A stretch of 32,000 nucleotides of DNA from positions 23,640 through 55,639 of the forward strand of contig CAZPGO010000005.1 in the NCBI GenBank assembly GCA_964586355.1. The letters run 5' to 3'. Below the pieces are notes generated by a model that had not been told where the DNA came from, made no database searches, and worked only from the letters and a program-made list of their open reading frames with translations. Position 1 is the stretch's first letter, and each line of letters begins with the position of its first letter. This document shows positions 1 to 30,980 of the stretch, piece by piece. This DNA is from an uncultured archaeon (GTDB taxonomy: Archaea > Iainarchaeota > Iainarchaeia > Iainarchaeales > CSSED10-239). The position numbers and the translations under genes were made by a program.

Positions 1-839
1 TTAAGTCTCTGAATTTAGAGGTAGTAATTGAGTTAAATTCTAGAAAACTATTAACAGATATTCTTAATTATTGTAATATTGATAAAGATCAAGCAAAGCA
101 AGTAATAATTTCAATAGATAAGTTAAAAAAGATTGGAATTAATGAAGTAAAAAAAGAACTATTAGGCAAAGAGATTTCAAAAGAAGCAATTGATAAGTTA
201 ATGTTTTTATTAAAAGATCTAGAAAAAGGAAGTAATAAAGAGAAGATAAAATATTTAGAGGAAAGGATAGGTAATAGTGAAGGCTTACAAGAGATAAAAG
301 AATTGTTTAAATATTTATCTTTATTTAAGGTAGAGTTTATCTTTTCTCCAACACTTGCAAGAGGGTTAGGATATTATACAGGTCCTATTTTTGAAATATT
401 TTTAAAAGACCCCTCAATAATCTCAGGATCTATTGCTGGTGGCGGTAGATGGGATAACCTGATTGGTAAGTATATTGGTAATGAAAATTTAAAACAATCT
501 GCAACAGGAATATCTTTTGGTATTGAACCAATTATGGATATTATTTTAAAAAAAGAAAATATAACTAGACAAAGTGTTTGTGATCTATTAATAATTCCAA
601 TTAATACCTTAGAAAAATCTATAGAAATTACTCAATATTTAAGAGATAAAGGAATAAAGACCATAGTGGATCTACAATCAAAATCAATTTCCAAAAATCT
701 AGAGTATGCTAGTAAGTTAGGTATACCTTTTGTTGGTTTTATTGGAGAAGATGAGTTAAAGCAAAAAAAAATAAAAATAAGAGATCTACAAACTGGTAAA
801 GAAGAATTAATTAATATAGATGAAATTAATCTTTTATAA
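1..839 (+). CDS. hisS: Histidyl-tRNA synthetase, C-terminal part (5' end lies outside the window)
   Basis: The frame of the 201..839 ORF stays open back to nt 3 (KSLNLEVVIELNSRKLL...). It has the class II motif-3-like GGGRWDNLIGKY and a C-terminal anticodon-binding-domain pattern (LLIIPINT...GIPFVGFIGEDELKQKKIKIRDL). Confidence 0.88.
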   Translation, partial: KSLNLEVVIELNSRKLLTDILNYCNIDKDQAKQVIISIDKLKKIGINEVKKELLGKEISKEAIDKLMFLLKDLEKGSNKEKIKYLEERIGNSEGLQEIKELFKYLSLFKVEFIFSPTLARGLGYYTGPIFEIFLKDPSIISGSIAGGGRWDNLIGKYIGNENLKQSATGISFGIEPIMDIILKKENITRQSVCDLLIIPINTLEKSIEITQYLRDKGIKTIVDLQSKSISKNLEYASKLGIPFVGFIGEDELKQKKIKIRDLQTGKEELINIDEINLL

Positions 840-3970: not shown

Positions 3971-3998
3971 AAAAATATCATTTATAAATATTATGTAT

Positions 3999-4020
3999 TC
4001 TATATATTATATATATTAAA
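3999..4020 (+). promoter_or_regulatory. TATA-like run positioned for the tRNA-Pro promoter
   Basis: ctatatattatatatattaaaa lies about 10-30 nt upstream of tRNA nt 1 (4030), the expected archaeal TATA distance. AT-richness makes this weak evidence. Confidence 0.35.
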
Positions 4021-4029
4021 ATAATTTAA

Positions 4030-4103
4030 GGGGCTGTAGTGTAGTCTGGTCATCACGAGAGCTTTGGGAGCTTTTAACCCCAGTTCAAATCTGGGCAGCC
4101 TCA
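4030..4103 (+). tRNA. tRNA-Pro (anticodon UGG), no encoded CCA, no intron
   Basis: Hand-folded cloverleaf. Acceptor GGGGCUG/CAGCCUC (one G-U), anticodon stem AGAGC/GCUUU with loop UUUGGGA (UGG at 34-36), T arm CCCAG-UUCAAAU-CUGGG, discriminator A. It is followed by CTTTTT. Confidence 0.9.
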
Positions 4104-4130
4104 CTTTTTGTATATGGGTGATTTTTTGCA

Positions 4131-15068: not shown

Positions 15069-16409
15069 TTATTTACTCTTTTGATTTTTTAATTTGTTTT
15101 TTTTATATTTATTATATCCAAATAATAGAACTATAATTATTGTAATCCCAATTAGAACATATGTTGTGGTATAATTTTTAGTTGTTTTTGTACCCACCCT
15201 TCCAGTAAAATCAGCTGTTGTTCCTAAGTTTGTTGTTATTAATTGTGTTTCAATTTCTTTTTCTACTGTATTTCTATTTCCTAATGAGTCTGTATATTCT
15301 ATAACTATTTTTAGTTTTCCTTGATTTGTTCTATTTAATATTCTGTCTGTATTGCTATCAAAAGTTTGTGTTTCTTTTGCGATATTTTGATCTCCTATTG
15401 TTCTTGATTGATTTAATGTAAAAGATGCTATGGTGTAATCTCCTTTATCTAAATTACCTAAAATGGTGGAATTTTGTCCAGATACTGTGTAGTTAGTTTG
15501 ATTAGGTATTATTACATTTACCGAGTATGCTGGATTATTGCCAATATTTGCGATAGATAAGGAAACATTGCTTAGATCTCCTTGAGACAAAGTTACATCA
15601 AAATCTGTTTTTCCTCCTACAAAAATTCCAGCAGTTGTGTTTATTTGTGTTTTTGTGTATTCTTCGTTTTCAAATTCTAATAATAAATTTAATTTATATA
15701 ATCCGGGTATAGAATTTGTGTTTGCCATAACATTATATGAAACAGTAATAGATTCCTCAATATCTAAATATTTAATATATTTTGTGTTATCAGAATTAAC
15801 TGGAAGAATGGTTTCTGTTTGATCACTCCATGAAAAAACTATGTTTCTTATTGGAGAATATCCTGTGTTTATTATTACAAAATCTAGTTTTTCAATAGTT
15901 CCAAAGTCAACATTTGCTTTATTTATTGTTATTATTTGAGCATATTCTTTACTTGTTACTTTTACTTCAAAATTATAGATGCTTGTAATTTCTGTTGTAC
16001 TTCTTTTTATTCTTAAAGACACATTATATATACCACTAGGTGCATCTTTATCAACTAACAATTTATATTTTAATATTTGTGAATTATCTTGATCTTGAAA
16101 AGGAAATATTTTGTTAATATTTTTTTGATAATCTTCTCCTGGTATTATAGAAAAAGGATAATCAAAATCTAAGGTGGCTGTAAGGTCTGTTACTCCAATA
16201 GAACCCATGTTTGTTATTCCAAATTTCAAATCTACAATTCCACCTGCTCTTATTGGATCTGGTGTTTGATTTAATAAGTTTATATTTAGATTTAATGCAT
16301 CCACATATGTGCCTTGATTTGAAGCCGCAAATATTAGTTTACTAGATAATAATATTACTAAAATTATCATTATTACTAAAAAAATTGTATTTGTTTTTTT
16401 TATTTTCAT
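15069..16409 (-). CDS. Exported, C-terminally anchored cell-surface protein with three CARDB/COG1361-like beta-sandwich modules
   Basis: Signal peptide (LLSSKLIFAAS). Three repeats of the pattern ...G..v.l.f.i.N.G...: AGGIVDLKFGITNMGSIGVTDL, EKLDFVIINTGYSPIRNI and SNVSLSIANIGNNPAYSV. TM plus Lys-rich tail at the C-terminus. The gene sits between the ABC ATPase and the permease. Confidence 0.6.
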   Translation of the reverse strand: MKIKKTNTIFLVIMIILVILLSSKLIFAASNQGTYVDALNLNINLLNQTPDPIRAGGIVDLKFGITNMGSIGVTDLTATLDFDYPFSIIPGEDYQKNINKIFPFQDQDNSQILKYKLLVDKDAPSGIYNVSLRIKRSTTEITSIYNFEVKVTSKEYAQIITINKANVDFGTIEKLDFVIINTGYSPIRNIVFSWSDQTETILPVNSDNTKYIKYLDIEESITVSYNVMANTNSIPGLYKLNLLLEFENEEYTKTQINTTAGIFVGGKTDFDVTLSQGDLSNVSLSIANIGNNPAYSVNVIIPNQTNYTVSGQNSTILGNLDKGDYTIASFTLNQSRTIGDQNIAKETQTFDSNTDRILNRTNQGKLKIVIEYTDSLGNRNTVEKEIETQLITTNLGTTADFTGRVGTKTTKNYTTTYVLIGITIIIVLLFGYNKYKKNKLKNQKSK

Positions 16410-17107
16410 TTTTTCACCTTTTTTTCTTCTATTTGATTTATTTTTCCATCAATTATGTGTATTATTTTGGTTCCATATTTAATTATATTTTGATCATGAG
16501 TTACAAGTATTATTGTTTTTCCTAATTTATTTAAATCTTTTAAAAAATCCAGAATATATATTCCTGTTTTTGAATCTAGATTTCCTGTGGGTTCATCTGC
16601 AAGAATTATTTCTGGATTTGTAATTAATGCTCGTGAAATTGCGACTCTTTGTTGTTGCCCTCCAGAAAGTTCTGTTGGAAGATGATGTGTCCTATTTGCT
16701 AAATCCATTTTTGTTAATATGTTGTTTGTATCTATTTTTGCTTTAGTGGTATTAACATTTAAAAATTCTAAAGGTAACATAACGTTTTTTTGAGCAGACA
16801 AAGATGGTATTAAATTAAACTGTTGAAAAATAAAACCAATTGTTTTTCCTCTTAATTTTGCTAATTTATTTTCAGATAATTTAGATATGTCTGTTCCTGA
16901 TAAATATACTTTACCACTGGTAGGTATATCTAAGCAACCAACAATATTCATAAGGGTGCTTTTACCTGATCCACTAGGCCCAAGGATAATTACAAATTCG
17001 CCTTTATTTATTGTCAGATTTATATCTTTTAATACTTGTAATTCTATTTTGCCCATTTTGTAGGCTTTAGTTACATTGATTATTTCTATTATTTTTTCTT
17101 TAGACAT
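16406..17107 (-). CDS. ABC transporter ATP-binding protein (MacB/LolD-like)
   Basis: Walker [10 protein letters not shown], signature [15 protein letters not shown], Walker [13 protein letters not shown]-loop VTHD. The stop overlaps the start of the next gene by 4 nt. Confidence 0.92.
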
Positions 17108-17172: not shown

Positions 17173-17252
17173 GTTTTTTTCAATTTCATTTTGAAGAAAT
17201 TGTTATTTTTTCGTTTTTTTCAATTTCATTTTAAAGAAACTATTATTTTTTA
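17173..17252. repeat. Tandem 40-bp direct repeat (2 copies, 36/40 identical) in a divergent promoter region
   Basis: 17173..17212 is gtttttttcaatttcattttgaagaaattgttattttttc. 17213..17252 is gtttttttcaatttcattttaaagaaactattattttttaa. TTTGAAACT also occurs at 17142..17150 and 17164..17172. Confidence 0.85.
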
Positions 17253-17275: not shown

Positions 17276-17905
17276 ATGAAAATAAAAAAAAACACTTTTT
17301 TAGGTGTGATAATTTTAATTGCTTTTTTATTATTGTTGTTATCTGTTTATTTTTTTATAGCAGCTCAAGAGAATTTAGGAAAAGATCGGTTTTTAAGTCA
17401 AAATCAAAGTCCTAGATCGGGAAAATATTTTGCTTTTTGTGATGATAACTCCGATCTTTCTACTTGTGTTATACAAAGAACAAAAGAAGAGTTTAATGAT
17501 GAATTTATAAGAACCAGAAAACCATTTATTTTTGAATATCATAAATATTTAATTCCATTAGCTGCATTTATTGGATTGTTATTTGGCTTAATTGTTTTTT
17601 GGGCTATGTCTGAAAAAGAAGTTAAAACAAAAAAAAATTTAATTAGTAATACAGAATTAATATTAAATATTTTGCCAGAAACACACCGTAAAATAATTCA
17701 GAAGCTTTTAGAGAATAATGGGAAAGTAAGACAATATGAGTTAGTGCATATTACCAATTTAAATAAACTAAAAATACATAGAATTTTAAGAGATCTTGAA
17801 AATAATGATATAATTACTAAAGAAAAAATTGGAAAAGTAAATACTATAATTTTAAATAAAGATATTTATAATATACTAAAAGAAGAATCAGATCTTAAAA
17901 AATAA
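17276..17905 (+). CDS. Membrane-bound winged-helix transcriptional regulator (TM, Cys-containing outer loop, TM, cytoplasmic wHTH)
   Basis: Two TM helices flank a loop of about 60 aa containing two Cys. C-terminal MarR/TrmB-like wHTH: HRKIIQKLLENNGKVRQYELVHITNLNKLKIHRILRDLENNDIITKEKIGKVNTIIL. Confidence 0.65.
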   Translation: MKIKKNTFLGVIILIAFLLLLLSVYFFIAAQENLGKDRFLSQNQSPRSGKYFAFCDDNSDLSTCVIQRTKEEFNDEFIRTRKPFIFEYHKYLIPLAAFIGLLFGLIVFWAMSEKEVKTKKNLISNTELILNILPETHRKIIQKLLENNGKVRQYELVHITNLNKLKIHRILRDLENNDIITKEKIGKVNTIILNKDIYNILKEESDLKK

Positions 17906-22399: not shown

Positions 22400-23107
22400 A
22401 TGAGATTTAAATTAGTAAAGAAAAAAGCAGTTAGCTCAAAAAAACCAGTAAAACCAATAAATTCTAAAAGCAAAAATAAAAGTGGTATAATTTTAAGATC
22501 TTTTAGAGCATTTGTAAAAAAAAAGATTTTACCAAAAATAAAAATAGTTGGTGAAAACTTAATTTCTCAAGAATTAAATAAAGGGCCAGTTGTTATTTTA
22601 AGTAGTCATAATTTTAAGAACGATTATTTTCTAATAGAAGCAATTTCCCCTAAGCATGTTTTTGCTATTGGAGATCCAGGTGTTGCAATTAAACAAGGAA
22701 CATATATAAGGGGTTTTAATATTCCTGGGGTAAGAGAATTAATGCATCAATTAGGAATAATAGAAATAAATAGAAAAAAACCAGCTGCTGGATTAAGATC
22801 TGCAATTGAAAATAGTGTTAGTTTATTAGAAAAAGGAGAAGCAATTTGTATTTTTCCAAAAGGCTATGGAGGAAAAGCAGGAACTGCAAGAGATCAAAGT
22901 TTAGGCGAAAGTACTAGTAGAAGTAGTGCTTTATTTATTTTACAAGAAGCAGAAAAAAGATTAGGCAAAAAAATTCCAATTGTTTTTGTGAGATCTGTAG
23001 ATTCTAAAGAAGGAGTTCTTATGAAAATGGAAAAAGGCTTTTTGCCAGAAAAGTTTGATCGTAAAAAATTAGCTTTAGATTATATTGATAAAATAGAAAA
23101 CCTATAA
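22400..23107 (+). CDS. PlsC-like (lysophospholipid) acyltransferase-family protein with a Lys-rich N-terminus
   Basis: VVILSSHNFKNDYF contains the HX4D motif, and ICIFPKGYGG resembles the FPEG block. Family-level call only. Confidence 0.5.
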   Translation: MRFKLVKKKAVSSKKPVKPINSKSKNKSGIILRSFRAFVKKKILPKIKIVGENLISQELNKGPVVILSSHNFKNDYFLIEAISPKHVFAIGDPGVAIKQGTYIRGFNIPGVRELMHQLGIIEINRKKPAAGLRSAIENSVSLLEKGEAICIFPKGYGGKAGTARDQSLGESTSRSSALFILQEAEKRLGKKIPIVFVRSVDSKEGVLMKMEKGFLPEKFDRKKLALDYIDKIENL

Positions 23108-24688
23108 CTTTTTTCTATTTCTTATTTGTCTATTATAAGTTATGGCAAATCTATGAGCCTCATCCCTTATTCTTTGAAGAAGTTGTAAAGATTGATCTTT
23201 TTTAGACAATTTAATTGGAAAAAGATTATCAACTTTAAATATTTCTTCATCCCTTTTTGCAAGAGAAATTAGATCTATCTTATCTAAGACATCTAGTTCT
23301 TTTAAAATCTCTTTAGCACAAGATAATTGGCCCTTACCACCATCAATAACAATTAGGTTTGGAAGATCTTTTTTTTCTTTAACTAGTCTAGAATATCTTC
23401 TTTTAACAACCTCTTTAATAGAAGAAAAATCATCAATCTTATCTTTAGGTAAAGATCTTATCTTAAATTTTCTATAATTTTTTTTATCTGGTAGGCCATT
23501 TTTAAAATAAACCATAGAACCAACAGTGTCTTTTCCAGAAAAATGAGATATATCAAAGCATTCTATAACTTTTGGCAAATATTTAAGATTAAGTTTTTTT
23601 TTAAGATCTTCTAATATTAGTTCATTTTTAAAGAAATTAAGTTCAATATTTTTTTTACAAAGATCAAGAAGTTCTTTTTTTTCTCCTTTTTTCGGAATTG
23701 TTATTTTTAGATTAGATATTTTTATGTGCTCTAAATACTTAATTGTATTTGAATCTATTTTTTTAGACAATATGATCTCTTTAGGTATTACATTATTAGA
23801 ATAATAATTAATTAAAAAATCATCCATTATAGATATATCAATTAAATTAATATCTATTTTTTTATCTATTTTATTTACTAATGTTCCTTTATCTATATTA
23901 AATAATAATACATATGCAATATTTTCTTTAATAATGAAATCAACAACATCCTGATCATAGGTTTTTTTTGTTTCAACATTTTGTTTTTCTGTTAAATATT
24001 TTATGGCTGTTATTTGATCTCTTAATATTAGAGATCTTTCAAAGTTTTTTTTATTTGTATATTCTTTCATTTTTTTATTAAGCTCTTCTATTAACTCAGC
24101 ACTTTTACCAGAAAGTATTTTTTTTATGTGTTCAATAATTTCTTGATATTCTTTTTCAGTGATTTTTTTAATACATGGTGCAGAGCAATAACCAATATGA
24201 TATCTTATACAGGGAGTTTTTGGTAATCTTTTACAAGTTCTTAATTTAAAGGTTTTATTTAGATATTTAATAAGATTAGATCTATTTTGTCCAGAAACAA
24301 AAGGCCCAAAAACATTTTCATCTTTTAAATCTGGTTTTTCTCTTTGTGTTAATAATCTTGGAAATTTTTCTGGACTTATTTTTATGTAAGCATACCTTTC
24401 TGAGTTTTTTAGATCTATGTTGTATTTAGGTAAATGTTTTTTTATTAAAGTGTTTTCTAGAATTAATGCTTCAAGCTCATTATTAGTAACAATAAAATCA
24501 ATATTAGAAATATTTGAAATTAAGCTTTGTGTTTTTGGTGTTTGATCTTTATTTAAAAAATAAGAAGACACTCTTTTTTTCAGATTTTTGGCTTTTCCAA
24601 CATAAATAATTGAATTTTCTTTATCTTTATAGATATAACATCCAGGGTTATTTGGTATTTTACTTAGATCAATCATACTTTTTACCAT
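23102..24688 (-). CDS. uvrC: Excinuclease ABC subunit C, short form without a C-terminal (HhH)2 domain
   Basis: GIY-YIG (PGCYIYKDKENSIIYVGKAKNLKKRVSSYF), Cys cluster (RTCKRLPKTPCIRYHIGYCSAPC), UVR domain (FERSLILRDQITAIKYL), and the endonuclease-V-like domain ending DEAHRFAITYNRQIRNRKKL. Confidence 0.9.
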   Translation of the reverse strand: MVKSMIDLSKIPNNPGCYIYKDKENSIIYVGKAKNLKKRVSSYFLNKDQTPKTQSLISNISNIDFIVTNNELEALILENTLIKKHLPKYNIDLKNSERYAYIKISPEKFPRLLTQREKPDLKDENVFGPFVSGQNRSNLIKYLNKTFKLRTCKRLPKTPCIRYHIGYCSAPCIKKITEKEYQEIIEHIKKILSGKSAELIEELNKKMKEYTNKKNFERSLILRDQITAIKYLTEKQNVETKKTYDQDVVDFIIKENIAYVLLFNIDKGTLVNKIDKKIDINLIDISIMDDFLINYYSNNVIPKEIILSKKIDSNTIKYLEHIKISNLKITIPKKGEKKELLDLCKKNIELNFFKNELILEDLKKKLNLKYLPKVIECFDISHFSGKDTVGSMVYFKNGLPDKKNYRKFKIRSLPKDKIDDFSSIKEVVKRRYSRLVKEKKDLPNLIVIDGGKGQLSCAKEILKELDVLDKIDLISLAKRDEEIFKVDNLFPIKLSKKDQSLQLLQRIRDEAHRFAITYNRQIRNRKKL

Positions 24689-24947
24689 AAATCTTATCTC
24701 TATGTTCTAGATATCTAAATATTATTCTGTTATTTTTTTTATCCACAAAAAATATTAAAATAAATTGTTCAGTAATATGAATTCTTTTATATTTTTGTAA
24801 AGGTTTTTTATGATTTTTATAATGATCTAAAAATTTGTTTTTTTTAATTTCGTCTATTTTTGTGAACAAGTAAATAGCTAATGATTTATTCTTTAAAGAT
24901 AATTTTTTAATTATTTTATCTAATTCCGGATGGATCTCATATTCCAT
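24669..24947 (-). CDS. RelE/ParE-superfamily-like toxin (92 aa)
   Basis: Size and pattern resemble archaeal RelE: ...KKLSLKNKSLAIYLFTKIDEIKKN...LQKYKRIHITEQFILIFFVDKKNNRIIFRYLEHRDKIY. It starts 1 nt after the upstream antitoxin-like ORF, and its 3' end overlaps the uvrC start. Confidence 0.62.
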   Translation of the reverse strand: MEYEIHPELDKIIKKLSLKNKSLAIYLFTKIDEIKKNKFLDHYKNHKKPLQKYKRIHITEQFILIFFVDKKNNRIIFRYLEHRDKIYGKKYD

Positions 24948-24948
24948 A

Positions 24949-25197
24949 TTAGTAATCTATTTTATATCTTTTTTTAAGTTCGTCGACAGATTTGAATTTT
25001 ATTCCTGATTTATATTTTTTATCGCCATCTAATATTTTCTTAACAAATTCTGGTCTTAATTCAGGTTCAAGATTTGTTTCAGAATATTTTGTTACAACTA
25101 AAGTTATTGCTTCGGCTTTGTTTTTTAGATTATGTTGTGCTTTTATGATATTTAAGGTTTGATTAATTTCAATGGGTAGATCGATTAATGCTTTCAT
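24949..25197 (-). CDS. Antitoxin-like small DNA-binding protein (RHH / DUF2683-like)
   Basis: MKALIDLPIEINQTLNIIKAQHNLKNKAEAITLVV... GGAGG lies 8 nt upstream of ATG 25197. The ORF track extends to 25248, but that extension is hydrophobic and AT-rich. A paralogous remnant sits at 906..1064. Confidence 0.6.
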   Translation of the reverse strand: MKALIDLPIEINQTLNIIKAQHNLKNKAEAITLVVTKYSETNLEPELRPEFVKKILDGDKKYKSGIKFKSVDELKKRYKIDY

Positions 25198-25261
25198 GTA
25201 CTTTGCCTCCATTAATATTCGTATATATATATTAATAGTTGTTAACATTTATTAACTTTCC

Positions 25262-28078
25262 TTATTTAATAATTTTCTTTAAAAAATCTCCAGTATAACT
25301 TTTTTTATTTTTAATAATTTCTTCTGGTGTGCCTTTACAAATAACCTCTCCCCCATATTTTCCACCATCTGGGCCAAGATCTATTATATAATCACAAGAT
25401 TTTATTACATCTAGATTGTGTTCAATAACAACAACAGTATTTCCTTTCTTAACTAACCGATCAAGAACCTCAATTAGTTTTTTAACATCATGAAAATGCA
25501 AACCAGTTGTTGGTTCATCTAAAAGATAAATGGTATTACCTGTATCTCTTTTAGATAGCTCTTTAGTTAACTTTATTCTTTGAGCTTCACCACCAGATAA
25601 AGTTACAGAATTTTGACCAAGTTTAATATAGGATAAACCAACATCCATTAATGTTTTTAGTTTTCTTTTTAAAGAAGGAATATTTTCAAAAAAGTAATAA
25701 GCTTCTTCTACTGACATATCAAGAACCTCAGCAATATTTTTATCTTTATATTTTATTTCTAAGGTTTTAGAATTAAATCTTTTACCCTTACACTCCTCAC
25801 AATCAACATAAATGTCAGGCAAAAAGTTCATCTCAATTTTTATTTGTCCATCACCTTGACAAGCTTCACATCTCCCACCTTTAACATTAAATGAAAATCT
25901 TCCAGAATTATATCCTCTAATCTTAGAATCTTCTAATTTACTAAATAAATCTCTAATATCATCAAGAACTTTGGTGTAAGTTGCTGGGTTTGATTTAGGT
26001 GTTCGTCCAATAGGAGATTGATCTATAGATATTACCTTGTCTATTTTTTCAGGGACATCTATATTTTTTACTTTGCCAATATTCATTTTTGATCTATAAA
26101 ATTTATTCATTAAAAAAGGATATAAGGTTTCATAAATTAAAGAAGATTTTCCAGATCCAGAAACACCAGTTACACAACTAAATACCCCAATTGGAATATC
26201 TATGTTAATATTTTTTAAATTATTTTCTTCGGCTCCAATTATTTTTATAAACTCTTTAGTTTTTCTTCTGTCTTTTGGAATTTCAATAAATTGAGTCCCG
26301 CAAAGATATTGACCTGTTAGTGATTCTTTATTAGCCATTATCTCCTTAGGTGTGCCAATAGCTATAATCTTTCCACCATGTATTCCTGCACCAGGACCAA
26401 TATCAATAACATAATCTGCTTGTTTTATTGTATCTTCATCATGTTCAACAACAATTACAGAATTACCAATATCTCTTAACTTACACAAAGTATCAATTAG
26501 TTTTTGATTATCTTTTTGATGCAAACCAATAGATGGCTCATCAAGAACATATAAGACACCAGTTAGATTAGTTCCAAGATTTGTTGCAAGTCTTATTCTT
26601 TGTGCTTCTCCACCAGATAATGTCCCTGTATTTCTGGATAATGTTAGATATCCTAAACCCACTTTTTCTAAAAACTCTAATCTAGAATTAATTTCTTTTA
26701 GAATATGTTTTGCGATTTCTTCTTCTTTTTTAGATAATTTTAATTTTTTAAAAAAATCTACTAATTCTAAGATAGAGAGATCTGTTAAATCAACAATTGA
26801 TTTATTAGCAATTTTTACATATAAGATTTTCTTTTTTAATCTTTTTCCATTACAAACCGTACAAGGAGAACTGTTCATGAATTTTTCCATTTCTGTTCTT
26901 CTGTATTCAGATTCTGTTTGTTTATATAGTCTTTGTGTTTGTGGAAGTAGTCCTTCCCAATTACCTGTGTAGTTAAAACTAGAAGTTCCATTTTTTCCAT
27001 TTAAATTAAAATTAATATTATCCTCTGAGCCGTACATTAATATTTTATATTGCTTTTCAGTTAGATCTTTTATTGGAGTTAAAGCAGAAAAACCATATTT
27101 CTTTGCAATTGTTGCAAGATGTTGTCCTCTCCAACCATCAATTGCATTTCTGTATATTGCTATTGCTCCATCAGCAATAGATTTATTTTTATCAGGAATT
27201 ATTAGATTTTCATCAAAATCCATCTTTATTCCAAGACCAGAACACTCTTCACAAGCCCCAAAAGGAGAATTAAAAGAAAACATTCTTGGTTGTAGTTCTT
27301 CAAAGGATAAACCACAGATTGGACAAGACATTTTAGAAGAATAGATCTTTTCTTTATTATCTATTAATATCTTAACTATTCCATCAGTGGATCTTTTTAT
27401 AGCAAGTTCAACATTTTCGACAATTCTAGATTTGTTTTCTTGATCTACTTTTATTTTATCAATTATAATATCAATATCATGCATTTTATATCTGTCAAGA
27501 ATTATTTTTTCATCAGTTCTTTTATTTTCATTGTTAACCCTTACTCTGGTGTATCCTTCTTTATTTAGATCTAAAAATAATTTTTCATAAGTTCCTTTTT
27601 TCTTTTGAATTATTGGGCAAAGAATAGTTATTTCTTTATTTAAGAATTCATTAAAGACATTTTCTGAAATTTTTTGAGGACTCATGGCTTGTATTTTTAT
27701 GTTGTGTTCTGGGCAATAAGCAGTTCCAACTCTTGCATACAATAATCTTAGATAATCATAAATTTCAGTAACCGTTCCAACTGTAGATCTTGGGTTTTTT
27801 GAAGTTGTTTTCTGTTCTATTGATATTGCTGGAGATAATCCTTCAATAGAATCAACATCTGGTTTTTTCATCATACCTAGAAACTGTCTAGCATAGCTTG
27901 ATAATGATTCAATATATCTTCTTTGGCCATCTGCATAGATAGTGTCAAATGCCAACGTTGATTTGCCAGATCCTGATAATCCAGTGATTATAACTAATTT
28001 TTCCTTAGGGATCTCTAGATCTATGTTTTTAAGGTTGTGCTCTCTTGCACCTTTAATAATTATTGATTTTGAAGTCAT
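25262..28078 (-). CDS. uvrA: Excinuclease ABC subunit A
   Basis: 938 aa with two ABC modules ([33 protein letters not shown]; LSGGEAQRIRLA, LSGGEAQRIKLT) and CxxC zinc modules (CPICG...CEEC, CTVCNG, CEACQGDG...CEECKG). Confidence 0.95.
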   Translation of the reverse strand: MTSKSIIIKGAREHNLKNIDLEIPKEKLVIITGLSGSGKSTLAFDTIYADGQRRYIESLSSYARQFLGMMKKPDVDSIEGLSPAISIEQKTTSKNPRSTVGTVTEIYDYLRLLYARVGTAYCPEHNIKIQAMSPQKISENVFNEFLNKEITILCPIIQKKKGTYEKLFLDLNKEGYTRVRVNNENKRTDEKIILDRYKMHDIDIIIDKIKVDQENKSRIVENVELAIKRSTDGIVKILIDNKEKIYSSKMSCPICGLSFEELQPRMFSFNSPFGACEECSGLGIKMDFDENLIIPDKNKSIADGAIAIYRNAIDGWRGQHLATIAKKYGFSALTPIKDLTEKQYKILMYGSEDNINFNLNGKNGTSSFNYTGNWEGLLPQTQRLYKQTESEYRRTEMEKFMNSSPCTVCNGKRLKKKILYVKIANKSIVDLTDLSILELVDFFKKLKLSKKEEEIAKHILKEINSRLEFLEKVGLGYLTLSRNTGTLSGGEAQRIRLATNLGTNLTGVLYVLDEPSIGLHQKDNQKLIDTLCKLRDIGNSVIVVEHDEDTIKQADYVIDIGPGAGIHGGKIIAIGTPKEIMANKESLTGQYLCGTQFIEIPKDRRKTKEFIKIIGAEENNLKNINIDIPIGVFSCVTGVSGSGKSSLIYETLYPFLMNKFYRSKMNIGKVKNIDVPEKIDKVISIDQSPIGRTPKSNPATYTKVLDDIRDLFSKLEDSKIRGYNSGRFSFNVKGGRCEACQGDGQIKIEMNFLPDIYVDCEECKGKRFNSKTLEIKYKDKNIAEVLDMSVEEAYYFFENIPSLKRKLKTLMDVGLSYIKLGQNSVTLSGGEAQRIKLTKELSKRDTGNTIYLLDEPTTGLHFHDVKKLIEVLDRLVKKGNTVVVIEHNLDVIKSCDYIIDLGPDGGKYGGEVICKGTPEEIIKNKKSYTGDFLKKIIK

Positions 28079-28168
28079 TTTTTTCGTATTTTCTTTTTTT
28101 CTATTTAAAGTTATAAAAATTAGATGTTATATATAATATATGATAAAAACATTATATATTCTTTTCTA

Positions 28169-28289
28169 GGGGGGTCTTGTCCACTGGAGCCTTTCTTAAA
28201 AAGAAAGCCTCGGGAAAGAACAAAAATGGTTACGCTTTTGTTGACACGCAATATAACCGGTTACGCTCGGTTAACGCGCAATTATAAGT
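28169..28289. other. GC-rich non-coding island: G6 run, imperfect hairpin and a tandem 31-bp repeat; candidate small RNA or regulator-binding array
   Basis: G6 at 28169..28174. Hairpin at 28187..28211 (GAGCCTTTCTT-AAA-AAGAAAGCCTC, 10 bp plus one C-C mismatch). Repeats at 28228..28258 (ggttacgcttttgttgacacgcaatataacc) and 28259..28289 (ggttacgctcggttaacgcgcaattataagt). Palindrome TAACCGGTTA at 28254..28263 spans the repeat junction. G+C is far above the neighbourhood. Confidence 0.6.
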
Positions 28290-28325
28290 TTATGCAAAAA
28301 CGAGATCAGAAAAAGTTTAATCAAA

Positions 28326-28348
28326 GAACCTTTTTCAAAAAAAGGTTC
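28326..28348 (-). terminator. Stem-loop (GAACCTTTTT / AAAAAGGTTC) followed on the minus strand by a T-rich stretch; likely terminator of the 28395..29087 gene
   Basis: 9-10 bp perfect stem with a 3-nt loop, 47 nt downstream of the minus-strand stop. On the minus strand it continues TTTGATTAAACTTTTTC. Confidence 0.45.
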
Positions 28349-28394
28349 ATCAAAAATGAAATAAAAAAATTAAGTGAAAATGAAATTAAAACAA

Positions 28395-29087
28395 TTATTT
28401 GTAAAACAAATGTGGGTTTTTATCTACAAATTTATTAATTAAACCATTTAAAAGAAACTGATCACCTTTTTTGAGATAAATGTATCCTAAAATAGATGCA
28501 AATAAAGCACCAATTGTGTCAAGTATAAAATCAATCATGGTGTCAATTACTCCAAGCCTAGTATTACAATATCCTTCGTTTGGACATAGATCTCTTGATT
28601 TTTGCATATTCATACCAAACATAGAATCCATTCCAAATTCAAACATTTCCCAAATAGCTCCAAAAGATAAAGTTATTAAAAAAATAATTAGACAAATAAA
28701 AAACGGGCTAGTTTTTATTTTTTCAGTTTTATATAAAACAGACATTATTCCAAAAACAATTAAACCAAGAGCAAAACCAGAAAATAAATGTAATAATGAA
28801 TCCCACCACCAAAATTTAAAATAAAAATTTCGCACCTCTCCTAAAAATACACCAGCATAAATAAAAAGTATTATTGTTATTTGTATTTCTGATGGTAGAA
28901 AAATACGATATCTTTTTTGAAAAAAATAAGGAATAAATATTAAAATAGTTGCAAGAATTGTTACAAAGAAAAAGTCCCAACGTTTGTTGAAGAATTCCAA
29001 AATTAATGCAATTATTAGTGTAAGTACTATAAAATAAGTTATATATTTCTGAATTCTATCAAAACCAACAACACTTTTTTTAACCAT
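28395..29087 (-). CDS. Multi-pass membrane protein of unknown function (possibly YjdF/DUF2238-like)
   Basis: About six hydrophobic helices, with conserved-looking polar motifs WWWDSLLHLFSGF and WEMFEFGMD...DTMIDFILDTIG. The family assignment is from memory and weak. Confidence 0.55.
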   Translation of the reverse strand: MVKKSVVGFDRIQKYITYFIVLTLIIALILEFFNKRWDFFFVTILATILIFIPYFFQKRYRIFLPSEIQITIILFIYAGVFLGEVRNFYFKFWWWDSLLHLFSGFALGLIVFGIMSVLYKTEKIKTSPFFICLIIFLITLSFGAIWEMFEFGMDSMFGMNMQKSRDLCPNEGYCNTRLGVIDTMIDFILDTIGALFASILGYIYLKKGDQFLLNGLINKFVDKNPHLFYK

Positions 29088-30272: not shown

Positions 30273-30980
30273 GTGTCAGAAATTGTAATTAATATTAGAA
30301 AAGATTTAAAGAAAAATTCAAATAAAAAAACAAAAGAAAGCTCAAAAAGATTTTTTAAAGAAGAAGTTATACTCTATGGTGTAAAAAGTGCAATTGTTTC
30401 AAAAATTGCAAAAAAATATTTTCAAGAAATAAAAGAATTAAATAAAAAAGAACTATTTTTAATTTGTGAAGAACTTTTAAAATCCGATTATTGTGAAGAA
30501 GCATACATTGTTTCTAATTGGTTGCCTAAAAAAATTGAGCTTTTTGAAGAAAAAGATATTAAGATTTTTAGAAAATGGATTGATCTATATATTAATAATT
30601 GGGCAAAATGTGATGGTTTTTGTAATCATACAATAGGAGATCTTTTAGAGACATTTCCAGAAATTATGCCAGAAATAAAATCTTGGTCAAAATCTAAAAA
30701 TAAATGGTTAAAGAGAGCATCAGCAGTTTCCTTAATCTTACCAGCAAGACAAGGCAAATATCTTAAAGATGCTTTTGAGATATCAGATGTTTTATTATTA
30801 GATCCTGAAGACATGGTTTTGAAAGGTTATGGTTGGTTATTAAAGGAAGCAAGTAGAAAACATCAAAAAGAAGTTTTATCTTATGTAATAAAAAATAAAA
30901 AAATAATGCCAAGAACCTCTCTTAGATATGCAATTGAGTTGATGCCAGAGAATCTAAGACAAAAAGCCATGAAAAAATAA
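30273..30980 (+). CDS. DNA alkylation repair protein, AlkD/AlkC-like HEAT-repeat family
   Basis: KESSKRFFKEEVILYGVKSAIVSKIAKKYF..., WAKCDGFC, KRASAVSL, KGYGWLLKEASRKH and MPRTSLRYAIELMP match my memory of the PF08713-type family. GTG start with AGGTGA 6 nt upstream. Confidence 0.72.
   Translation: MSEIVINIRKDLKKNSNKKTKESSKRFFKEEVILYGVKSAIVSKIAKKYFQEIKELNKKELFLICEELLKSDYCEEAYIVSNWLPKKIELFEEKDIKIFRKWIDLYINNWAKCDGFCNHTIGDLLETFPEIMPEIKSWSKSKNKWLKRASAVSLILPARQGKYLKDAFEISDVLLLDPEDMVLKGYGWLLKEASRKHQKEVLSYVIKNKKIMPRTSLRYAIELMPENLRQKAMKK

Follow-up and report, generated by a model that had tools for sequence, protein, structure and literature searches.

A hairpin-repeat mosaic upstream of uvrA in an Iainarchaeum-like archaeon belongs to a DPANN family that also occurs in tRNA introns

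The window analyzed here is a 32-kb stretch of contig CAZPGO010000005.1 from an uncultured archaeon, and our subject is a short island of repeats and hairpins that lies in it between the excision repair gene uvrA (25262-28078, minus strand) and a gene for a DUF2238-like membrane protein (28395-29087, minus strand). The island belongs to a repeat family that recurs at many DPANN loci. Its unit is a hairpin whose stem covaries, homologous units form part of tRNA introns, the composite as a whole is found at loci that are not syntenic with uvrA, and the uvrA locus itself varies between relatives. The explanation that best accounts for these observations, to which we give a probability of roughly 0.6, is that the island represents a single copy of a multi-locus mosaic repeat of DPANN archaea, selfish or recombinogenic in character, which marks an insertion hotspot and is not specific to uvrA.

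RESULTS

A covarying 27-nt hairpin defines the family

The repeat unit is a 27-nt hairpin that reads, on the plus strand, YAACNG-GTTWCGCT-CNGTTR-ACRCGCA (also given as YAACNGGTTWCGCTCNGTTRACRCGCA), with a 6-bp stem and an 8-nt loop. A degenerate pattern was built from the copies in the window and in L083 (L-numbers are labels for the related or motif-bearing loci that were compared) and scanned against metagenome contigs. It matched at least 120 stretches; about 85 AT-rich archaeal contigs were among the matches listed, and the matches in GC-rich DNA are due to chance. The initial annotation had raised the prospect of a motif occurring nowhere else, and this did not hold: the motif is absent from the rest of the window but recurs in these metagenome stretches. 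Within the window, the island was the sole locus recovered by a 24-nt repeat pattern scanned over the whole 32 kb and by R1, a covariance model of the unit. The 24-nt pattern was matched in none of 100 shuffles and is thus not a chance occurrence.

Stem positions were paired in 491 of 492 cells (99.8%) across 82 distinct copies. Pair 6-25 was CG in 55 copies, UA in 24, and UG in 3, and pair 10-21 was UG in 33, UA in 26, CG in 19, and GC in 2. The observed pairing or covariation score was reached by 0 of 500 shuffles, and slid controls were 0.6 to 45% paired. Covariation with related copies, which the initial annotation had proposed as a check, supports the 6-bp stem. Because that stem is kept by compensatory changes, we infer that the unit acts as a single-stranded hairpin (RNA, or extruded or single-stranded DNA) and not as a duplex operator.

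The unit's three variable positions, columns 10, 21, and 28 of alignment A3, are CpG/TpG/CpA sites. Column 28, in the ACRCGCA tail outside the stem, is strongly linked to a stem position with which no pairing is possible; the sequences suggest subfamily structure or deamination history here, not a third pairing.

Four motif-bearing contigs (L122, L111, L143, and L097) encode proteins named Candidatus Woesearchaeota, and the closest relatives of the protein that neighbors the island in the window are named Candidatus Iainarchaeum or Diapherotrites. With the motif in both Woesearchaeota and Iainarchaeum-like contigs, the family extends to at least two DPANN phyla. When R1 was run on the window and on 476 kb of motif-selected related loci, the latter yielded about one copy per locus and about 14 extra copies. 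Rfam 15 at gathering score gave no match in the window or in 20 related loci, and a literature search for the motif string found no paper that prints the unit, only chance matches to primers. The element is a new family, without match in Rfam or in the searched literature, and it belongs to known kinds of element, namely, interspersed palindromic mosaics and transposed bulge-helix-bulge (BHB) introns.

Units occur at tRNA genes and as the 5' ends of BHB introns

Of about 90 copies, over half lie in or against tRNA genes. Classing the 5' flanks of 90 distinct copies by eye gave approximate counts: about 13 copies lie right after a T-loop (GGTTCRAAW), at least 5 after position 37 of the anticodon loop, about 13 after a D-arm 5' fragment, about 10 after a tRNA 3' end, 5 antisense against a tRNA 5' end, and 11 after a run of G residues (the G-run), with the rest tandem or in no flank class. 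Most of the D-arm 5' fragments are followed, 40 to 60 nt further on, by a complete tRNA that repeats the fragment. ARAGORN with its intron search placed the motif inside predicted tRNA introns in L138/L150, L141, and L144. It also placed the motif 0 to 10 nt from tRNA ends in L100, L110, L155, L172, L134 (twice), L109, L113, and L156, the hairpin foot being on the same strand near tRNA 3' ends and in the opposite orientation near tRNA 5' ends.

Deleting a segment that starts at the motif restored a tRNA in 25 of the 90 copies. Restored junctions fell in the T-loop (L097, L119, L186, L202, and L206), the D-loop (L135), and the anticodon loop (L138, L144, and L211), and the tRNA genes of all these loci are interrupted by homologous copies. 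In minimum free energy folds, the L122 and L121 precursors form, in order, the T-stem, a 3-nt bulge, UUCG:CGAA, a 4-nt bulge, and an 8-bp helix (AACUGGUU:AAUCAGUU), and the whole intron folds into a rod, with a diverged copy of the unit, inverted, as its 3' arm. These folds display a bulge-helix-bulge. Taken with the restored junctions, they show that the family includes genuine BHB introns at three tRNA positions. In the intron copies, the unit is the 5' end of BHB introns of about 75 to 130 nt in Woesearchaeota tRNA genes; in AT-rich Iainarchaeum-like genomes, it stands at tRNA gene borders or in intergenic mosaics. The window copy is of the latter kind. Deletion trials on it restored no tRNA, and the island is neither inside a tRNA or rRNA gene (ARAGORN, Rfam) nor does it form a BHB in its folds.

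Two further observations concern tRNA genes elsewhere. The T-loop-intron tRNA genes of L121, L122, L096, L173, L194, L210, and L124, which probably hold further introns, went undetected by ARAGORN and the Rfam tRNA model, also when one intron had been removed. Inserted units of about 65 to 90 nt with direct target duplications were seen in L112, L107, L178, L182, L098, L120, L161, L094, and L104; where the insertion is in a tRNA gene, the duplication always begins at position 1 or earlier, and the tRNA downstream is thereby complete again. Disruption of tRNA genes is common in DPANN archaea, whose lineages are known for undetected disrupted tRNAs and for splicing endonucleases of broad specificity (PMC5829648).

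The composite recurs at loci without uvrA

Read along the plus strand, the mosaic runs from a tRNA-5'-end-like G-run with a TATA-like box upstream, through a hairpin with 11-nt arms and a degenerate and an intact unit in tandem, to a T-rich hairpin. The G6 run occupies 28169-28174 and opens a G-run module, GGGGGGTCTTGTCCACTGG (minus strand, CCAGTGGACAAGACCCCCC; 28169-28187); the mosaic is conserved at this end, and it is here that relatives have accessory genes inserted. Next comes the hairpin module, GAGCCTTTCTT AAA AAGAAAGCCTC followed by GGGAAAGAA (28187-28220), whose hairpin at 28187-28211 (inverted repeat I16) has 11-nt arms that are 91% complementary, with one C.C mismatch. Tandem Repeats Finder (TRF) reported a repeat at 28228-28287 with a period of 31, 1.9 copies, 80% matches, and a score of 76. 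The degenerate copy (28222-28250) retains the loop GTTACGCT (28229-28236) and the tail ACACGCA, has AACAAAA/TTTTGTT in place of the stem, and is matched by R1 in the loop alone (6.3 bits). The intact copy, TAACCG GTTACGCT CGGTTA ACGCGCA (28254-28280), scored 50.6 bits (E = 3e-14; match spanning 28249-28283), and the palindrome TAACCGGTTA lies at the repeat junction (28254-28263). The G6 run, hairpin, two 31-nt repeats, and palindromic junction are therefore present where the initial annotation had placed them, according to the sequence, TRF, and the inverted-repeat search. The mosaic ends in a T/A-rich hairpin whose sequence, with conserved flanks (28310-28360, strand not fixed), is also found in L140 and L158; its core at 28326-28348, GAACCTTTTT CAA AAAAAGGTTC, has perfect 10-nt arms (I17). 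It had been taken for a terminator-like hairpin of the upstream gene, an assignment that we withdraw because it belongs to the repeated composite; it could still serve as a transcript end from either side.

G-run, hairpin, repeats, and T-rich hairpin recur in near-identical form in L140 (two copies), L158, and L180, and neither uvrA nor a DUF2238 protein is encoded nearby in any of the three. The composite is thus a non-syntenic, multi-locus unit. Its neighbors elsewhere, and those of the motif, include tRNA genes and genes for YhcG, ParE, RhuM, Bro-N, and HD proteins. The G-run module recurs in L083, L215, L214, L140 (twice), L158, and L180, and a sister form, GGGGGGGTAGGTGTCCAGT, accompanies the unit in L089, L133, L159, L169, L176, L179, and L199. 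The hairpin module is also found in L140, L180, and L158, and in L083, L215, and L214 the repeat unit replaces one of its arms.

The G-run module can be aligned with the junctions of D-loop introns: the sequence is GCCTCTGTGGTGTAGTCCGG|TAACTGG in L099, which has such an intron, and GGGGGGGTAGGTGTCCAG|TCAACCGG in L176, which has the sister form of the module. The D-loop intron of L135 is a further case for comparison. On the strength of this alignment, it may be read as a tRNA-5'-end-like leader. It appears to resemble the first 20 or so nt of a tRNA up to the D-loop, and it may derive from a tRNA 5' fragment. No complete tRNA matching it was found at the compared loci.

The window carries an AT-only TATA-like stretch 28 to 40 nt 5' of the G-run (28129-28141, plus strand), as the initial annotation had noted, and relatives of the G-run class have one about 24 to 35 nt 5' of theirs. 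This stretch is a candidate archaeal promoter from which the mosaic may be transcribed, on the plus strand from the G-run. A second TATA-like box, TTATATAT (28153-28160, strand not fixed), lies 9 nt from the G-run. Viewed on the minus strand, where the G-run is a C-run, this box comes about 10 nt after the C-run and is preceded by a purine-rich stretch; the order C-run, about 10 nt, TATA is conserved in L083, L215, L140, L180, L105, and L127, and the box could be a minus-strand promoter firing towards uvrA.

The island is noncoding and distinct from the intergenic DNA around it

The initial annotation had described the island as conspicuously G+C-rich. This is correct with respect to intergenic DNA, the island having a G+C content of 0.39 to 0.41 versus 0.14 to 0.25 in the adjoining spacer, but not with respect to genes, since nearby coding sequence reaches 0.33 to 0.40.

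An open reading frame (ORF) of 104 amino acids that crosses the island (28124-28438, plus strand) has no Pfam match and, as had been suspected, is spurious, because it reads repeat DNA that recurs at unrelated loci. It has been called as a gene publicly, in contigs from the Joint Genome Institute (JGI) too, and its sole "homologue" is L140 repeat DNA in the same frame. The ORF thus has no family and only an in-frame repeat for a relative, and the suggestion that the island might be a fragment of a degraded higher-GC gene is rejected. The noncoding assignment was upheld. Neither Rfam nor ARAGORN, which searches for tRNA and transfer-messenger RNA (tmRNA), found a tRNA, signal recognition particle RNA, or RNase P RNA in the island. 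At E <= 10 over 28050-28450, Rfam gave chance-level matches only and no partial tRNA match. CRISPR, C/D-box, and H/ACA elements were dropped by inspection, there being no spacers, C/D boxes, or pocket-plus-ACA layout. A virus or plasmid origin was likewise rejected: viral contigs gave one chance match in GC-rich DNA, and phage and plasmid collections left the island unmatched.

The spacer upstream of uvrA is a variable slot

Locus orders were read on the minus strand, with M for the unit, H for the hairpin module, C for the C-run, and T for the T-rich hairpin. The window reads T-M-M-H-C-TATA-uvrA. L083, whose neighboring proteins are 87% identical, has four repeat copies in the same spacer (M-M-H-M-M-C-uvrA), and L215 reads M-M-H-M-C-uvrA. 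Three relatives have genes at the end of the C-run: L214 reads M-M-H-M-C-two small ORFs; L089 (uvrA 78%) reads C-YhcG-unit remnant-uvrA; and L199 (uvrA 75%) reads M'-M-C-BroN-70-amino-acid ORF-uvrA. These accessory genes, between the C-run end and uvrA, lie within 4700-5960 in L089 (a YhcG/DUF1016 nuclease), 2600-4065 in L199 (Bro-N and the 70-amino-acid ORF), and 1990-2800 in L214. Module maps of the window, L213 to L215, L083, L140, L158, and L180 show a mosaic that varies between relatives. Contigs with identical proteins carry an identical island.

The gene that follows the C-run end at other loci encodes YhcG in five cases, a ParE toxin in two, and in others RhuM, Bro-N, or an HD protein, and YhcG has a C-run on both sides in L095 and L140. 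A Pfam census of the 149 ORFs within 2 kb of the motif counted 4 YhcG, 4 radical SAM, 3 AAA_14/DUF4143, and 3 Y1_Tnp proteins, with no dominant partner, and no integrase family was among the 25 commonest families. L089 and L199 share an orthologous uvrA-proximal hairpin (…CCCTCGAATTCG…) that bounds the other side of the slot. Downstream of YhcG, L089 (5809-5850) and L095 (about 700-720, minus strand) have a short form, ATTGCGACCAGTTA / ATTGCGACCATTTA, that looks like a unit from which the 5' arm and loop are precisely missing.

uvrA belongs to a minus-strand cluster of bacterial-type excision repair genes (23102-28078) that also comprises genes for a DUF2683 protein (24949-25248) and a 92-amino-acid ORF (24669-24947), and uvrC (23102-24688), all on the minus strand; the order uvrA-DUF2683-92aa-uvrC is also found in L083. 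A DNA-alkylation-repair gene lies at 30273-30980. uvrA has a TATA box of its own, TTTAAATA (28102-28109, minus strand), 23 nt 5' of the ATG at 28078 and outside the mosaic. By the TATA-to-start distance of archaeal promoters, this position makes a leaderless uvrA mRNA probable, and uvrA is probably transcribed independently of the island. A uvrA-based scan of Genome Taxonomy Database (GTDB) genomes found no close genome and hence gave no synteny information; the best uvrA among the GTDB species genomes was 58% identical (Iainarchaeum).

Two other repeats were noted in the window. The strongest tandem repeat (17173-17251; 40-nt unit, 2.0 copies, 92% matches, TRF score 137) lies between ORFs 16406-17107 and 17276-17905 and is unrelated to the motif. 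The gene for tRNA-Pro(UGG) (4030-4104), the only tRNA or tmRNA that ARAGORN found in the window, begins just 3' of a threefold repeat of TATATATTA (3992-4018) and lacks the hairpin motif.

DISCUSSION

A probable selfish or recombinogenic mosaic at an insertion hotspot

We favor the view that the island is one copy of a dispersed mosaic. On this view, it behaves like selfish or recombinogenic DNA: close relatives differ by gains and losses of units, and the G-run end is the point at which relatives have different accessory genes ahead of uvrA. In tRNA introns, the first bases of the unit pair with the intron 3' end to form the outer helix of the splice motif. The units may have spread as mobile intron-like elements or as elements like miniature inverted-repeat transposable elements (MITEs).

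Several points weigh against this view. No transposase or integrase is consistently linked to the motif among the 149 neighboring ORFs. The flank duplications, about 7 to 38 nt, are variable and fit no standard transposition mechanism. Copy density is low, with one locus in 32 kb and extra copies rare in 476 kb, so the unit does not appear to be a high-copy repeat like the repetitive extragenic palindromes (REPs) of bacteria. Folding of the whole island was no better than that of shuffled sequence (z = +0.11 on the plus strand and -1.7 on the minus strand), and an RNA from the plus strand is putative. The stem has 39 G.U pairs in the plus-strand reading that are A.C mismatches on the other strand, but this asymmetry comes mostly from intron copies, which pair with the intron 3' arm, so the G.U pairs do not fix the acting strand of the mosaic copies. 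The tRNA origin of the G-run is a matter of resemblance, with no partial match to the Rfam tRNA model. Finally, the mosaic is conserved upstream of uvrA in several relatives, which leaves room for a local side effect on uvrA expression.

Relation to known repeats and introns

The intron copies invite comparison with transposed BHB tRNA introns. Large-scale transposition of similar introns among tRNAs was described in Thermoproteales by Fujishima et al. (2010), as summarized in PMC4033280. As far as that summary goes, similar introns in different tRNA species and positions (T-loop, D-loop, 37/38) are common to both systems, and the intron copies of the present family are likewise removed via a BHB at the exon-intron borders. 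Unlike such introns, the window copy lies outside a tRNA gene and has no BHB. What the copies share is a well-defined hairpin of 27 nt, conserved in two DPANN phyla, which is also present at the borders of tRNA genes and opposite tRNA 5' ends in antisense and makes up tandem arrays and parts of intergenic mosaics. The Caldiarchaeum tRNA-Thr fragment reported by Sugahara et al. (2012) documents tRNA fragments left by mobile elements and offers a further likeness, a tRNA 5' fragment with its promoter cut off by inserted DNA and adjoined by mobile or accessory genes (PMC3293823). It differs in that our inserts are often just about 70 nt and lack a recombinase, in that the G-run is tRNA-like by resemblance only, and in that no matching complete tRNA was found.

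The mosaic form is closer in kind to REPs, bacterial interspersed mosaic elements (BIMEs), and REPINs (REP doublets forming hairpins), which are palindromes mobilized in bacteria by REP-associated tyrosine transposases (RAYTs) of the Y1 type. Like them, it consists of short imperfect palindromes that form hairpins between genes, in the window between uvrA and the DUF2238-like gene, and that are built, together with further short motifs, into mosaics of tandem or inverted pairs that vary between relatives. The intron form, a rod of two inverted copies, recalls a REPIN, and a Y1 transposase is occasionally nearby (3 of the 149 ORFs; adjacent in L116 on one side only). The family differs in being archaeal, in its apparently low copy density, in being conserved across phyla and not species specific, and in its strong tie to tRNA genes and splicing. 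MITEs differ from it as well, since the window copies are direct tandem units whose flanks are not duplicated; the intron forms do have inverted arms, but their duplications are not of fixed length.

Alternative explanations

The strongest competitor, which we regard as unlikely, is that a gene-cassette or integrative-element system uses the island as a site of recombination or attachment. Its core would be …GGACA.CTACCCCCCGAAAA, possibly a tRNA 5' end, the hairpin units would be DNA crossover sites, and the spacer in the window would be an empty slot. Relatives do carry different accessory genes at the same locus, exactly at the C-run end (YhcG in L089, Bro-N in L199, and small ORFs in L214), and YhcG lies between two C-runs in L095 and L140. 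The cargo (ParE, RhuM, Bro-N, HD, and PD-(D/E)XK proteins) is typical of mobile cassettes, and the unit has inverted arms around an asymmetric 8-nt spacer, which is the layout of recombinase core sites. Archaeal integrons exist (Ghaly et al. 2022, PMC9668308), and the likeness to their attC sites covers a single-strand hairpin with AAC…GTT ends, a setting among same-orientation accessory genes such as those for ParE toxins, and variable cargo at a fixed junction. The census tells against such a system, having no integrase among the commonest families, and so does the location of most copies in or at tRNA genes without cargo; the intron copies are clearly RNA-level elements. An attC site has the layout R''-L'' … L'-R', is usually 55 to 140 nt long, and neighbors IntI or an array of sites. 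The unit, with 27 nt, a single stem, and no two-box layout, is shorter than this, and IntI was not found; judged by layout, its identity as an integron attC site was rejected.

A bolder version of the same idea strikes us as less probable again. In it, Iainarchaeum-like DPANN archaea would have an undescribed gene-cassette system that recombines at the G-run/C-run core and the hairpin units. The system would be comparable in function to attC sites but descended from the 5' end of a tRNA and a hairpin of the intron type, and it would move YhcG, ParE, RhuM, Bro-N, and HD genes into fixed slots such as the one ahead of uvrA, while the unit would also have invaded tRNA genes and persisted there as a spliced BHB intron. 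If true, the movement of cassettes and the gain of tRNA introns would be joined in one family of elements.

It is somewhat more doubtful still that the island is a stand-alone small RNA gene, with a plus-strand transcript of about 165 nt from the G-run to the T5 run at 28330-28334, that would act as the 5' piece of a split tRNA with a hairpin-repeat trailer or as another functional RNA. The TATA-like box stands at a suitable distance from the G-run in the window and in relatives, and the G-run looks like tRNA positions 1 to 20 with the intron-start motif after them, an arrangement that L099 and L135 show in their D-loop introns. Motifs in the opposite orientation directly precede tRNA genes and could in principle pair with the trailer, and unidentified disrupted tRNAs are reported to be hidden in DPANN genomes (PMC5829648). 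A 3' partner with the acceptor strand CCCCCC(C) was, however, absent from every compared locus, and the tRNAs that follow the opposite-orientation motifs are complete. Unit number and hairpin arm vary between close relatives, unlike those of a constrained RNA gene, and neither Rfam, the tRNA models, nor the folding energy gave a signal. Of the initial annotation's general proposal, a structured RNA or a protein-binding array, the structured part is retained in the covarying hairpin unit; the regulator array is not.

We consider it improbable that the unit is an element of the IS200/IS605 world, of the REP type or the type of palindrome-associated transposable elements (PATEs), with the hairpin serving as the subterminal hairpin for a Y1 (HUH) transposase and moving as single-stranded DNA. 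A conserved loop, a covarying stem, and the one-strand behavior of the hairpin would suit such an element, Y1_Tnp ranks with the most frequent Pfam families around the motif, and in L116 (480-1420) a distance of 85 nt separates the end of an IS200-like TnpA gene from a motif copy that sits where the element appears to end. This is the one convincing adjacency, and R1 found no copy on the other side of that gene; the nearest comparable cases, L163 and L106, have their copies 12 kb and 560 nt away. The low copy density also speaks against this origin, as do the flank duplications seen at motif copies, because IS200/IS605 elements make no target duplications. L116 also has hairpins of a GC-YTYAT-GC loop type on both sides of the transposase gene.

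There is very little left to recommend the specific suggestion of the initial annotation, that the island is an operator array for a transcription factor controlling uvrA and the repair cluster. The island does lie 60 to 180 nt upstream of the uvrA TATA box, its 31-nt spacing is close to three helical turns, the repeat junction is palindromic, and the mosaic is kept upstream of uvrA in L083 and L215. But most occurrences of the motif and the composite are at tRNA genes or beside unrelated accessory genes, the number of units varies, and cargo genes separate the element from uvrA in L089 and L199. Stem covariation is seen within single arrays, a sign of base pairing and not of fixed duplex recognition. 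None of 80 uvrA loci from other taxa has the pattern, and uvrA has its own TTTAAATA box.

A replication origin is the least credible reading: the module GCTCCAGTGGACAAGA-CCCCCC matches the origin-recognition-box (ORB) consensus GTTCCAGTGGAAAC-AAA----GGGGG (PMC1868953) at 11 of 14 positions of GTTCCAGTGGAAAC with a homopolymer run nearby, and the Pyrococcus mini-ORB TTCCAGTGGAACT resembles CTCCAGTAGAACT of L176-type relatives, but the polarity is wrong (a C-run where an ORB has its G-string on the same strand), the window has a single dyad and no inverted copies around an unwinding element, no Orc1/Cdc6 is among its large ORFs, and the module recurs many times beside accessory genes.

Implications

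For the uvrA locus, a copy of a dispersed mosaic means that the island is no evidence for a repair regulon, and for annotation it means that gene callers turn such DNA into a spurious 104-amino-acid ORF. The Rfam tRNA model, and in part ARAGORN, failed to detect tRNA genes with introns of this family, so that the tRNA sets of such genomes will look incomplete; this is relevant to the incomplete sets described for DPANN genomes. Evidence on the gain and spread of archaeal tRNA introns has so far come mainly from intron similarity within one order. Here, one 27-nt hairpin links introns at three tRNA positions with tRNA 5' fragments, gene borders, and intergenic mosaics beside mobile-type genes. 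R1 provides a concrete family in which to seek insertion polymorphisms, source copies, and linked enzymes, and the double life of the unit as intron and mosaic makes the spread of tRNA introns testable.

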